Source of the DNA: Deltaproteobacteria bacterium
GTDB lineage: Bacteria > Bdellovibrionota > JACOXK01
DNA length: 64,000 nucleotides
Assembly (NCBI GenBank): GCA_016186995.1
Contig: JACPKQ010000007.1
Coordinates: forward strand, 52,226-116,225
Direction: 5' to 3'
Numbering within the stretch: the first letter of the stretch is position 1; the number at the start of each line of letters is the position of its first letter. Below the pieces are notes generated by a model. The model was not told the origin of the DNA. It searched no databases and worked only from the letters and a program-made list of their open reading frames with translations. Shown piece after piece: positions 3,069 through 40,015 of this stretch. A program made the translations under genes and the position numbers.

Positions 3069-3167
3069 ATGGCTCAAGTTAAAGGTATCCTTTTTGATCT
3101 CGACAACACGCTGATTGATTTTATGAAAATGAAGAGAATAACTTGTTTAGAGACTGCCTTTGCATGA
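3069..3167 (+). pseudogene. Fragment (32 codons) duplicating the N-terminus of the HAD hydrolase gene at 5589-6248
   Basis: Fragment: MAQVKGILFDLDNTLIDFMKMKRITCLETAFA*. Intact gene: MKKIKGILFDLDNTLIDFMKMKKMACSEAAAAM. DNA identity is about 75%, with many synonymous changes. The fragment terminates prematurely at TGA. Confidence 0.6.
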
Positions 3168-3446
3168 CTGCAAAACTACAAAATACAGTGTGGCTATAGC
3201 GACAAGTAGTGTAAAAATGTCAATACTTAGTGACCACTTAAACTTCTTAGAATCTCTTTCAGCTTTTAGCTTCATCTCCTTCATTATTTCGTTATGCATC
3301 TCCCGTGAATTTGACATAACTGTAGGATAGCAATGCTAAGATTAGCGTGCAAGACTCAAATGTAGCTCTAATAAATGTATATCTAATTTTATAGATATAC
3401 TATTGTATTGCTATAGTAATTATGATAAAAATGATATCTTGTTAGC

Positions 3447-4256
3447 ATGAAGGAAACGTTTTATAAAAAGGAAATTAAAGTTCATGGCAATGTATATCCT
3501 TCCATTCGACAAGCAGCGCTATATTTTCATCTGAAACCACAACTTGTATGGGCTAGATTGAAGAGAGGAAAATCTATAGACGAAGCATTTTCAAAAGTTT
3601 ACCTCAAGCGTATCGGTAAAGGAAAGCCCTTTTCTATAGAAGGGAATCATTTTGATTCAATTGCGGAAGCGGCAAGGTTTTATGATATAAATGAAAGCAC
3701 AGTTCGACACCGGCTAAAATCTGGATGGTCAAGAAAGCAAGCGTTTGGAATTGTAGGCCGGCCTCGAAAAGACCGCATAAAGATCAAGGTAAATAATATA
3801 GAATATTCTTCACTCACTGAAGCAGCACGCGCTCATAATTTAGCTCCTTCAATTGTTTGGCAAAGACGTCGACGAGGGTGTTCTATAGAAGAATTGTTCT
3901 CAAAAGATTGCTTGCCGTTGAAAGGCAAAAGTCGAACAATTGTCGTACAAGACAAAACATATCCTTCAGCAAAAATCGCAGCTGTAAAGTTTGGTGTTCA
4001 TTATAGCAAAGTACGTTGGCGTCTTAAGAATGGTTGGTCGCCAGAGCAAGCTTGTGGCATTGAGGAACGACCAGTTAAGCAGCGGAGACCTGTTTCATTC
4101 AGAGGTAAACAACATGAATCAATGTCTACTTTTGCACGGTATTACGAAAAAGATCCAAGATTAATTGGTGCGCGGTTAAGACGCGGATTGAGTATTGAGG
4201 AAGCGCTTGATATTAAAGAAAGGAATTATCGATCTAAGCCAATTACCTGTTTATAG
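3447..4256 (+). CDS. Protein made of five tandem NUMOD-like HTH DNA-binding repeats (nuclease-associated modular DNA-binding domain), with no nuclease domain
   Basis: Five roughly 45-aa repeats with the pattern (V/I)xGxxYxSxxxAAxxxxxxxxxVxxRLxxGWSxExA, for example IEGNHFDSIAEAARFYDINESTVRHRLKSGWSRKQAFG. ATG start. The 3' end overlaps the next ORF in another frame. Confidence 0.55.
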   Translation: MKETFYKKEIKVHGNVYPSIRQAALYFHLKPQLVWARLKRGKSIDEAFSKVYLKRIGKGKPFSIEGNHFDSIAEAARFYDINESTVRHRLKSGWSRKQAFGIVGRPRKDRIKIKVNNIEYSSLTEAARAHNLAPSIVWQRRRRGCSIEELFSKDCLPLKGKSRTIVVQDKTYPSAKIAAVKFGVHYSKVRWRLKNGWSPEQACGIEERPVKQRRPVSFRGKQHESMSTFARYYEKDPRLIGARLRRGLSIEEALDIKERNYRSKPITCL

Positions 4257-4980
4257 TGTGACCAATACAAAAGCCGGTAAGCAATATGTTGGCGAGTCCT
4301 CATGTACACTTGAAAAGCGTAGGCAATGGCACATGAAGCAAGTTTACGGTGAAAAGAGACCTGCTGAAGGTAGTTTGCAGGAGGCGATTAAAAGAGATGA
4401 ACCTGAGTATTTTAAATGGAAAGTGCTTGCACGCTGTAGGTCGATAGATCAAGCTAACAGACTCGAACGAAAATTTATCAGAGAGTTTAATACTTCATAC
4501 CCACATGGTTACAATCTTCGGCGAGGTGGGACAGGCATTTCAAAAAAAGGTAAAAAAATATTGGTGAATGGGAAGCCTTTTGACTCTTACAGAGCTGCAG
4601 CTGATGCCCATGGTGTAAATATTGGAACATTTCAGGATAGGTTGTACGCGGGGTATTCACCCGAACAGGCTGCTGGTTTGATTCCGCTTGATAAAGTGCA
4701 TCCAAAATCACGTAAAATTAAAATAGATAATATAGAATATCCAACAATAAAAGATGCTGCTAAAGCTGCTGGTCAGCCTGCAAATAGAGTGAGAAATAGA
4801 ATTCACTCTGGCTGGTCTGTAGAAAAGGCGCTTAAAACACCATTTTCGAGAAGAGATACTCCTGTGAAAATTGATGGTACCACTTATTCATCAATGGGGG
4901 TTGCTGCAAGGAAATTAGGTATTAATTATGACACATTGAGATACAGGCTGAAAAAGCAAAGGAAGAACATGTATGTTTAA
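4195..4980 (+). CDS. GIY-YIG family homing-endonuclease-like protein with three C-terminal NUMOD-like repeats. Either it starts on TTG or it is the frameshifted continuation of 3447-4256.
   Basis: PVYSVTNTKAGKQYVGES...LEKRRQWH...FNTSYPHGYNLRRGG matches the GIY-x10-YIG motif, the conserved Arg and the catalytic Glu region. It is followed by VNGKPFDSYRAAADAHGVNIGTFQDRLYAGYSPEQAAG-type repeats. There is no in-frame ATG upstream of the GIY motif. Confidence 0.6.
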   Translation: MRKRLILKKGIIDLSQLPVYSVTNTKAGKQYVGESSCTLEKRRQWHMKQVYGEKRPAEGSLQEAIKRDEPEYFKWKVLARCRSIDQANRLERKFIREFNTSYPHGYNLRRGGTGISKKGKKILVNGKPFDSYRAAADAHGVNIGTFQDRLYAGYSPEQAAGLIPLDKVHPKSRKIKIDNIEYPTIKDAAKAAGQPANRVRNRIHSGWSVEKALKTPFSRRDTPVKIDGTTYSSMGVAARKLGINYDTLRYRLKKQRKNMYV

Positions 4981-5067
4981 AATTAAAGATATTCTTTTCT
5001 TACAAAATAGAGTGGTTAGACATTTCGATGCAAAAATTAGAATGTCAGTAAATTGTGGAGATAAATC

Positions 5068-5592
5068 TTGAGTATTAAGATTGTTCCCTTGATAGAGGCA
5101 ATTCCAAATTCTGGATACGATTCCAATAAACGACGGTCTAGTTTATTAGCACATGCTGGCGTTGCTTATCTCGAGGCATATGAAGCTATGAGCAATCTAC
5201 CTGAAAAGGGATTTGCTGTTCATTTCGTTGAGCTACCTTTATTGCACATGACTTTGGAACTTTTGATAAAAGCGTATGTGTCGTGGATTGATGATAGTTT
5301 TGATCCAAAAAAAAGGGCATACAGACATTGTACAAAAAAAATTATTGAAGATTATGCGGATAAAATAAATGAATTCTCTTTGATAAAGAATAATCCTGAG
5401 AAAATTGCTCTCATTGAACAGCTAGAAAAAGCATGGAGATACTTGAGATATGGGGAAAGCACCCTTACGTGTGAAAGAAAAGATTTACATATGGCAAAAG
5501 ATTTAGCAATCGAACTTGCAGAAGCTTATCATAAAGCCACTGGTCTTCGCTTTTTTAGCCATCATTTTTCGCAAAAAGGAGCAAAAAGGTGA
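5068..5592 (+). CDS. Hypothetical all-helical protein; possibly HEPN-like (tentative)
   Basis: 174-aa ORF with a TTG start. The R-x3-H stretch (RKDLH) and the helical composition only loosely suggest HEPN. It sits between the GIY-YIG gene and the HAD gene. Confidence 0.3.
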   Translation: MSIKIVPLIEAIPNSGYDSNKRRSSLLAHAGVAYLEAYEAMSNLPEKGFAVHFVELPLLHMTLELLIKAYVSWIDDSFDPKKRAYRHCTKKIIEDYADKINEFSLIKNNPEKIALIEQLEKAWRYLRYGESTLTCERKDLHMAKDLAIELAEAYHKATGLRFFSHHFSQKGAKR

Positions 5593-6248
5593 AAAAAATA
5601 AAAGGTATACTCTTTGATTTGGATAATACACTCATAGATTTCATGAAAATGAAGAAAATGGCTTGTTCTGAGGCTGCAGCAGCCATGCTTGGTGCAGGGC
5701 TAAAAATAAAAGCAGAGAACTTGGCAGATGATCTTTTTAAATATTATTTAAATTATGGTATTGAGGGTGATTATCCTTTCACTGACTTTTTAAAAGAGCA
5801 TAATGCCTATAAAGATGAAATTCTGGCAGCAGCAATCAATGCTTATAATCGGGTGAAATCAGCTTTTCTAGAACCCTATCCAGGGGTGATTCCAACGTTC
5901 ATTAAGTTAATTAAAAAAGGAATAAAGCTTGGTATTGTGACAGATGCCCCTTCTTTAAAAGCTCACAGAAGAATTGACTCTATGAAGCTTCACGGATTTT
6001 TCGATGTCGTTGTTACTGAAGCAAATAAACCTGATCCGAAAGGTTTTTTGGAGGCTGTGAAGAAATTGAATCTGGAGCCAAAAGAAGTCATGATGCTCGG
6101 TGATTGGCCTGAGAAAGACATAGTTGGGGCTAAAAACGCAGGACTCATCACTTGTTTTGCAAAGTATGGGCAAATGGAAAATGTTAAAGAGAAAGTTGAA
6201 GCTGACTATGTGATTCAACGAATTGAGGAGGTTAATCAAATTTTATGA
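5589..6248 (+). CDS. HAD-superfamily hydrolase (subfamily IA; phosphatase or pyrophosphatase-like)
   Basis: Motif I DxDxT in ILFDLDNTLIDF. Motif III is K within VTEANKPDPKGF. Motif IV is GD in MLGDWPEKDIVGAKNAG. GTG start. Confidence 0.75.
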   Translation: MKKIKGILFDLDNTLIDFMKMKKMACSEAAAAMLGAGLKIKAENLADDLFKYYLNYGIEGDYPFTDFLKEHNAYKDEILAAAINAYNRVKSAFLEPYPGVIPTFIKLIKKGIKLGIVTDAPSLKAHRRIDSMKLHGFFDVVVTEANKPDPKGFLEAVKKLNLEPKEVMMLGDWPEKDIVGAKNAGLITCFAKYGQMENVKEKVEADYVIQRIEEVNQIL

Positions 6249-39102: not shown

Positions 39103-39903
39103 ATGTCACTCAGAAAGTCGATATTTGTTTTAGTGACTGTATGTGCTGGATTGTTTTATCAGCCTGTGAATGCAGCGGAAAGTGTGGGCCTGTTAGGTAG
39201 CACTCTTCGTGAGCATGCACGAGAAATCCACAGAGCTTCAGAAAGAATGGTAGCTCAAGCCGAAGCCTACAAAGGCTATTACGATTCTGATAACTTTCAT
39301 GTAGTTTATCAGTTAAGAGACTTAGAAAGCTCAGCCAGACGCTTCCGTAGCCGGGTAGATTCGTGGTTGCAAGATCCTTCTCTTGCCTACAACGAATTTT
39401 ATGATGTTGCAGGCGATCTTGAAGATGTAAAAATGGTAGCTTCACGAGCTACTTTTTTTCGTTTCATTATGGATGATTTGAATCGAGCAAGTGAAAGCGT
39501 AAGAGAGCTTCGTTTGTATTATTATGGTTATGGTTACCGTCATTGGGATGATCATTATAGAGATGATCGTGAAAGACGTCGCCATGAAGAACGTGAACGT
39601 CGTGAGCGTGAAAGAAGAGACCATTGGGATCGAGATGGACATCGCTACGATCGAGATCGTCATGAACGTGAAAGAAGAGATCGCGAACGTTGGGACAGAG
39701 ACCGTCGTGATCGTGAAGAGCGCGACAGAAATGAACGTGAACGTCGTGAAAGAGAAAGACGTGAACGTGAAGATCGTGAAAGGCGCGATCGTGATAACCG
39801 AGATCGAGACCGTTGGGATAGAGACAGAGATCGTGATCGCGGAGATCGAGACCGTCGCGATCGTGAAGACCGTGAAAGACGCGATAGAAATCGCCATAGA
39901 TAA
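39103..39903 (+). CDS. Secreted protein with an N-terminal domain paralogous to 38315-39076 and a roughly 120-aa C-terminal Arg-Asp/Arg-Glu dipeptide-repeat tail
   Basis: Signal peptide MSLRKSIFVLVTVCAGLFYQPVNA. The tail reads RDDRERRRHEERERRERERRDHWDRDGHRYDRDRHERERRDRERWDRDRRDRE...RDRNRHR. The underlying DNA at 39538-39900 is an imperfect cgtga(a/t)cg(t/a)-type tandem repeat. Confidence 0.6.
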   Translation: MSLRKSIFVLVTVCAGLFYQPVNAAESVGLLGSTLREHAREIHRASERMVAQAEAYKGYYDSDNFHVVYQLRDLESSARRFRSRVDSWLQDPSLAYNEFYDVAGDLEDVKMVASRATFFRFIMDDLNRASESVRELRLYYYGYGYRHWDDHYRDDRERRRHEERERRERERRDHWDRDGHRYDRDRHERERRDRERWDRDRRDREERDRNERERRERERREREDRERRDRDNRDRDRWDRDRDRDRGDRDRRDREDRERRDRNRHR

Positions 39904-39926
39904 GATCAAGATACGTAATTGGAAAG

Positions 39927-40015
39927 CTGTCATCGCGAGGGAATGAAATGACCGTGGCGATCTCATCGCAGTAGCGATGGGCATGGCGCAGCACCCTTAC
40001 CTCGCAATGACGAGG
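39927..40015. repeat. Copy of a dispersed palindromic repeat family with imperfect inverted termini CTGTCATCGCGAGG ... CCTCGCAATGACGAGG
   Basis: The termini are at 39927-39940 and 40000-40015. Internal small palindromes include gcgatctcatcgc. Confidence 0.55.

Follow-up and report, generated by a model that had tools for sequence, protein, structure and literature searches.

A GIY-YIG homing-endonuclease gene, probably a deletion allele, behind two overlapping reading frames in a Deltaproteobacteria bacterium

I-TevI, which is encoded by the td intron of phage T4, is a 245-aa homing endonuclease in which a linker and then a zinc finger connect the N-terminal nuclease domain with one helix-turn-helix (HTH) unit at the C-terminus. 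Together with I-BmoI, I-TevI provides the paradigm in which an extended target is bound and both strands are cut by one active site held on a linker (PMC3664794). In classical GIY-YIG homing endonucleases, the NUMODs lie C-terminal to the nuclease (Dunin-Horkawicz et al. 2006, PMC1564403). The “orthodox” GIY-YIG enzymes (PMC1564403) and the Seg-type endonucleases of T4-like phages resemble the gene described here in that a GIY-YIG domain is combined with NUMODs in a free-standing gene of accessory DNA. This gene occupies positions 3447–4980 of a 64,000-nt stretch of DNA (hereafter the window) from a Deltaproteobacteria bacterium (GenBank assembly GCA_016186995.1, contig JACPKQ010000007.1, positions 52,226–116,225), where it appears as two overlapping open reading frames (ORFs), ORF1 and ORF2. 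The stretch 3447–4980 very probably represents one free-standing GIY-YIG homing-endonuclease gene in the form of a deletion allele, and not a case of special decoding.

ORF2 is read in the +1 frame relative to ORF1, and its frame opens directly behind a TGA at 4189–4191. It overlaps ORF1 out of frame by 62 nt (4195–4256), an overlap that had been noted in an initial annotation made from the sequence. The earliest in-frame ATG of ORF2, at 4333 (residue 47), lies past the tyrosines of the GIY and YIG motifs and past the catalytic Arg and His, which bears out the earlier remark that no ATG precedes the GIY motif. The NCBI gene model MBI2608303.1 (215 aa, 4333–4980) begins at this ATG and consequently lacks the GIY/YIG tyrosines and the catalytic Arg and His; this model (HYW47_01750) and that of ORF1 (HYW47_01745, MBI2608302.1) are both labelled “hypothetical protein”. 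The initial annotation had recognized five NUMOD-like HTH repeats in ORF1, and a GIY-YIG core with three repeats in ORF2. A repeat hidden Markov model (HMM), built from the repeat units and run on all six frames of the window, agrees with both descriptions, as does Pfam for ORF1, and places the nuclease domain of ORF2 at 4249–4530 and its modules within 4558–4956 (Table 1). The number of module copies, which had been suggested as a check, is exactly eight in the whole window (each with an independent E-value of 6e-10 to 5e-19), and no further copy of the module or of the GIY-YIG domain was found in the six frames of the 64 kb.

The relationship between the two ORFs was revealed by an exact-sequence look-up in protein clusters, in which one 90% cluster unites ORF1 and the NCBI model of ORF2 with P0003, a protein of 568 aa from a Logan assembly of run SRR12113420. 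P0003 consists of residues 1–268 of ORF1, 58 extra residues, and residues 19–261 of ORF2, and carries six modules, the GIY-YIG domain, and three modules in a single ORF. In the window, ORF1 follows P0003 over residues 1–268 and then ends with a single out-of-frame Leu and a TAG at 4254–4256, while ORF2 corresponds to P0003 residues 326–568 from V19 (4249) onward, its residues 1–18 being an out-of-frame reading of the end of module R5. At the DNA level, a 2,422-nt contig (L001; Logan SRR12113420_355928) matches window positions 3196–4250 followed by 4248–5444 at 100% identity with zero mismatches. The sole difference between the two is a segment of 173 nt (L001 1056–1228) that is absent from the window and whose breakpoints share the triplet TGT. 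With the breakpoint marked by a slash, the junction in the window reads ...ACCTGT/TTATAGTG..., also given as ...CCAATTACCTGT/TTATAGTGTGACC.... P0003 residues 269–326, encoded by the missing 173 bp, make up module R6 and the linker and include the residue with which the GIY strand starts. Because 173 equals 3 × 57 + 2 and is not divisible by three, the 3′ half of the gene is found in the +1 frame; the ORF1 stop falls 6 nt beyond the junction, and the first strand of the ORF2 nuclease starts with the out-of-frame residues QLPVY, compared with KYIVY in the intact protein.

The lesion is a 173-bp deletion; neither a frameshift of one base, nor a programmed shift, nor a pair of ancestral genes accounts for the two frames, and the deletion looks like a microhomology-mediated event. 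Thus, the earlier suggestion of one frameshifted homing endonuclease holds with respect to the single gene and its decay, but not with respect to the cause, which had been sought in a 1-nt insertion or deletion. The locus is a case of ordinary gene decay or an assembly variant.

ORF1 and ORF2 have no sequence in common and yet fall into the same 90% cluster, which is represented by ORF1, because the 568-aa protein bridges both. A word-indexed homologue search with ORF2 returned no match, since it is ORF1 that represents the cluster of ORF2. Within the intact allele, the segment L001 1195–1235, which has no counterpart in the window, contains AAAGGAG 8 nt upstream of ATT-GTT-TAT, the codons for I-V-Y of the GIY motif; this Shine–Dalgarno-like sequence ahead of the nuclease domain could be due to chance or could be the relic of an ancestral short-form start.

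A programmed +1 ribosomal frameshift within the 62-nt overlap, which would fuse ORF1 to ORF2 and which had been raised in the initial annotation, is rejected on the basis of the overlap sequence and the intact single-ORF allele. The overlapping frames and the required +1 direction agree with such a mechanism, and nothing else does. The search for slippery heptamers that had been proposed along with it detected neither an X XXY YYZ heptamer nor a homopolymer of at least 4 nt in 4192–4256; the overlap thus carries no shift-prone motif, and a ribosome shifting at the stop codon would pass over the codon for the catalytic Tyr. The homologues, like the intact allele, are single ORFs, and the overlap cannot be a conserved signal because the deletion created it. 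The likelihood of programmed frameshifting at this site is considered vanishingly small.

The direction of the change can be read from the relatives of the intact gene. With ORF2 as the query, a full HMMER scan covering 1.84 billion representative proteins recovered 8,484 relatives at E ≤ 1e-3, 103 of them at E ≤ 1e-30. The closest, P0010 (604 aa), P0011 (607 aa), and P0014, show 36–47% identity and are, like P0003, collinear, with modules arranged in the same order on either side of the nuclease and with module 6 and the linker in place; unlike the window gene, they are intact single ORFs, and none adjoins a haloacid dehalogenase (HAD) hydrolase gene such as the one found downstream in the window. 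P0003 and P0010 align collinearly over residues 11–559 with 41% identity. The deleted segment is present in these closest relatives (KPI.C.V....F.SR.AA...G.DK..V..R.N.LGWTL.QALEL.P.P.YD) and is 58% identical to P0010 and P0014, compared with 41–47% overall, and across 53 relatives the conservation of module R6, which holds five nearly invariant columns, equals that of the nuclease domain. As the relatives carry the 173-bp segment in single ORFs, and in well-conserved form, these comparisons indicate that the single ORF is the ancestral state and that the window represents a form derived by deletion. The alternative put forward in the initial annotation, a repeat-only paralogue beside a separate nuclease gene, is contradicted by the intact 568-aa ORF and by the single-ORF homologues. 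The P0010 gene resides in a chromosomal island together with an integrase, AlpA, and a Toll/interleukin-1 receptor (TIR) protein.

By its residues, profile matches, and fold, the gene belongs to the I-TevI-like homing endonuclease branch of the GIY-YIG superfamily. NCBIfam TIGR01453 (“group I intron endonuclease”, I-TevI family) matches P0003 residues 326–567 with 67.6 bits against a cut-off of 56.05, and the homing-endonuclease families of PHROG and PADLOC match the gene as well. The Pfam GIY-YIG profile PF01541 reaches 20.9 bits on ORF2, just below its cut-off of 22.6, which is passed by P0010 (29.0) and P0011 (45.2). The columns that are invariant among 25 and 53 relatives correspond to Y327, Y338, G340, R349, H353, E398, and N414 of P0003 and to Y20, Y31, G33, R42, H46, E91, and N107 of ORF2, where all seven are present. 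When compared with the PDB, a family profile of the nuclease domain retrieved only the I-TevI catalytic domain (1MK0 and 1LN0, E about 3e-13), and the invariant Y, Y, G, R, H, E, and N of the family align with those of I-TevI, including R27 and E75; a phmmer search of P0003 against the PDB sequences gave no match, and the family profile was needed to reach I-TevI.

The modules are predicted to be DNA-binding HTH units of the NUMOD1/I-TevI type. NUMOD1 (PF07453, cut-off 22.8) scores 35.5 bits on ORF1 and 49.1 on P0003, I-TevI_DNA-bd (PF20987, cut-off 27) scores 32.7 and 54.8 bits, respectively, and both lie above their thresholds in ORF2 as well. The AlphaFold2 model of P0003 has a mean predicted local distance difference test score (pLDDT) of 87.7 and a predicted template modelling score of 0.45, the latter being expected of beads on a string. 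The model contains nine units of about 45–50 aa, each formed by a short two-strand β-hairpin and three helices (HTH), and residues 324–405 adopt a β-β-α-α-β-α arrangement with pLDDT around 90 or higher. The best PDB matches of the model in Foldseek are 1MK0 and 1LN0, with a TM-score of 0.79 (normalized to the I-TevI chain) and a root-mean-square deviation of 2.7 Å.

The likeness to I-TevI therefore comprises the invariant Y, Y, R27, H, E75, and N, the fold, the PF20987/NUMOD1 modules, and TIGR01453. Unlike in I-TevI, the nuclease domain is internal, placed between six and three HTH modules of one kind, no zinc finger is seen, and the gene is free-standing in a bacterial chromosome: an Rfam scan of the whole window at gathering thresholds finds only tRNA-His and no group I intron. 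By analogy with I-TevI and I-BmoI, the intact protein would use its HTH array to bind a long stretch of target DNA, the single GIY-YIG active site, held on a linker, would nick both strands, and repair would copy the endonuclease gene into the cut site. In the window, the gap of 173 bp between the two TGT triplets takes out module 6 along with the linker and the residue that opens the GIY strand, and the resulting frame change leaves a 269-aa ORF with modules only and a nuclease ORF devoid of an ATG of its own. The deleted allele would then be a decaying and probably inactive copy, in keeping with the life cycle of homing endonucleases.

Several points weigh against this reading of the locus. 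The NCBI record of the metagenome-assembled genome (MAG) is the only place where the deleted form appears, no Logan assembly gave the 269-aa ORF1, and the sole independent assembly that spans the junction (Logan, SRR12113420) is intact with flanks at 100% identity. The 173-bp gap could be an assembly error of the MAG, in which case the cells would hold only the intact 568-aa gene and the overlapping ORFs would have no biological existence. This explanation is possible but doubtful: the breakpoints have just 3 nt (TGT) in common, the modules are about 70% alike at the DNA level over at most 47 nt, which leaves no repeat of k-mer length to collapse, and gene decay is common among homing endonucleases.

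A further point is that L001 begins and stops (at 3196 and 5444) within the cassette that has a HAD gene fragment (HAD′) on one side and the full HAD gene on the other. L001 could conceivably derive from a second, paralogous cassette, or from a different strain or genome present in the sample, and not be allelic to the copy in the window. Such an origin is quite unlikely, given that 2,249 nt, of which 251 nt are intergenic DNA upstream of the gene, are 100% identical, and given that another contig from this run, L003, runs on from 5441 and enters the HAD gene at 100% identity; L002, from the sister run, likewise extends into the downstream genes at 100% identity. No second copy is present in the 64-kb window, and even if one existed elsewhere, the window copy would still be a deleted derivative of a single gene. 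The deletion is regarded as probably real, an assembly artefact as clearly the less favoured option, and the small remainder is left for a different strain or a second copy. In either case, deletion or artefact, ORF1 and ORF2 belong to one gene.

Weighing on the same side, the predicted homing function of the gene is drawn from family membership only, and ORF2 retains all catalytic residues together with a plausible Shine–Dalgarno sequence and TTG start, which leaves its inactivity unproven. Both halves might accordingly function after the deletion, ORF1 as a five-module DNA-binding protein and ORF2, starting at TTG 4207 or 4195, as an orthodox endonuclease with three modules. In principle, ORF2 could be re-initiated at TTG 4207, where GAGGAAG is located 3 nt before the TTG and 5 nt from its AGGA core; a natural short form of 260 aa that is 42% identical to ORF2 (P0021) stands alone, and module-only proteins occur in the family. 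Two working genes are nevertheless unlikely, as the first nuclease strand of ORF2 begins out of frame (QLPVY for KYIVY) and the lost module R6 is conserved as well as any module of the family. The event also appears to be very recent, with 0 substitutions in 2,249 nt, and selection has therefore had no time to test the products.

The position of the modules distinguishes the subfamily from the orthodox GIY-YIG enzymes (PMC1564403). Among the top 150 of the 8,484 relatives, 111 contain the nuclease domain, and 82 of these 111 carry at least one module N-terminal of it within a single ORF, so that most members possess an N-terminal module array too; in the other 29 the nuclease is at the N-terminus. 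The remaining 39 of the 150 are module-only proteins with up to 18 modules and no recognizable nuclease domain. The number of modules per relative ranges from 3 to 18, mostly on both sides of the nuclease, and from 3 to 13 where a nuclease is present; the eight modules of the window, which had been called unusual, are therefore within the normal range. A literature search found no published description of a GIY-YIG subfamily with an N-terminal array, and the subfamily is apparently a large, uncharacterized architectural variant that is common in metagenomes. Cultured phages gave 16 weak matches only, and a recent phage origin is therefore not shown; a scan of IMG/VR with P0003 returned zero relatives. 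Weak tblastn matches of the module array (25–26% identity over 54–71% of the query) were obtained to Vpf497, which is an unnamed ORF in filamentous phages of Vibrio (AB043678.1/NC_002362.1, Vibrio phage VfO3K6), and to the GIY-YIG endonuclease of the jumbo phage BcepSaruman (MK552140.1).

It may be speculated, with a low expectation of being correct, that the subfamily forms an uncharacterized class of modular nucleases for long targets, built on arrays of HTH modules with a nearly identical fold, and that the pair of alleles represents a natural domain fission into an array and a re-initiating short endonuclease. If so, the array released by fission could act at the target site as a competitor or a repressor, and a short orthodox endonuclease would re-initiate at TTG 4207.

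Read as one gene with a deletion, the locus calls for a change in annotation: HYW47_01745 and HYW47_01750 are pieces of one homing-endonuclease gene, and the second model begins past four catalytic residues. As to method, an exact-sequence look-up in independent assemblies can decide between a frameshift and two genes without reads. Biologically, the locus is a routine case of endonuclease gene decay. The many-module GIY-YIG enzymes with modules flanking the nuclease on both sides are abundant in metagenomes and stand outside the classical scheme of N-terminal nuclease and C-terminal NUMODs, and they might be of use to engineers of I-TevI-based nucleases.

Table 1. Features of the endonuclease locus and its neighbours (positions in the 64,000-nt window).
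Feature	Position	Strand	Remarks
HAD′	3069–3167	+	32-codon remnant of the 5′ end of a second HAD-hydrolase gene; just left of the endonuclease + ORF3 cassette
ORF1	3447–4256	+	ATG start, 269 aa; 5′ part of the endonuclease gene (ORF list)
DNA-binding modules R1–R5 (five)	3474–3599, 3633–3764, 3783–3908, 3939–4073, 4092–4223	+	ORF1 frame; repeat HMM, Pfam, AlphaFold2 model of the intact protein
ORF2	4195–4980	+	TTG start, 261 aa; 3′ part of the endonuclease gene (ORF list)
Candidate ORF2 re-initiation site	4197–4209	+	GAGGAAG, 3 nt (5 nt from AGGA core), TTG 4207; predicted from the sequence
Deletion junction	4248–4250	+	TGT microhomology; comparison with L001
GIY-YIG catalytic domain, I-TevI-like	4249–4530	+	One copy, independent E-value 6e-31; Y20, Y31, R42, H46, E91, N107 intact
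C-terminal DNA-binding modules R7–R9 (three)	4558–4686, 4717–4842, 4864–4956	+	ORF2 frame; repeat HMM
ORF3	5068–5592	+	174 aa, without a family match; stop codon overlapping that gene start (GTG) of HAD as GTGA
Full HAD gene	5589–6248		HAD-IA hydrolase; TIGR02253-like, 150.9 bits, below cut-off

The endonuclease gene and ORF3 are located between the HAD′ remnant and the full HAD gene. HAD′ is 78% identical at the DNA level to the start of the full gene (3069–3167 versus 5589–5687), and over the 18 codons for KGILFDLDNTLIDFMKMK (catalytic motif I) the two differ by 9 synonymous and 0 non-synonymous changes, and the HAD copies therefore diverged while both were selected as working genes. Judging from this codon pattern, the HAD′ fragment derives from a separately evolving functional HAD gene. 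The arrangement of remnant, cassette, and full gene fits an insertion, or possibly the repair of a break at the HAD 5′ end with imported DNA. An empty site was found neither by a HAD protein scan of the genome contigs, which gave distant homologues only, most of them from DPANN archaea, nor by exact-pattern scans of JGI metagenomes, in which the left flank of the junction and the HAD′ fragment gave 0 matches. The closest HAD homologues among the GTDB species representatives belong to DPANN archaea (Woesearchaeota, Nanoarchaeota, and Iainarchaeota; 45–52% identity), and the remaining window is bacterial in appearance, with sigma-54 regulators, histidine kinases, and FeoB; a DPANN-like HAD gene in such surroundings suggests an inter-domain transfer.

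Linkage to a HAD gene was not seen among the relatives of the endonuclease. The only close homologue of ORF3 (63% identity) is found in another groundwater MAG (L017 5333–5842), where it is flanked by AbiEi/AbiEii and a CAP12-PCTIR TIR gene with no endonuclease nearby, so that linkage of ORF3 to an endonuclease is not seen at that locus. PADLOC assigned none of the neighbours in the window to a defence system. ORF3 may belong to the accessory or defence-island genes and not to the endonuclease element.

Far from the endonuclease gene, the segment 39103–39994 is the kilobase of highest GC content in the window (44.5%). It contains a tandem repeat of 54 nt in 2.4 copies (39651–39782) that encodes an Arg/Glu/Lys-rich sequence, and long antisense ORFs overlap the plus-strand gene at 39103–39994.

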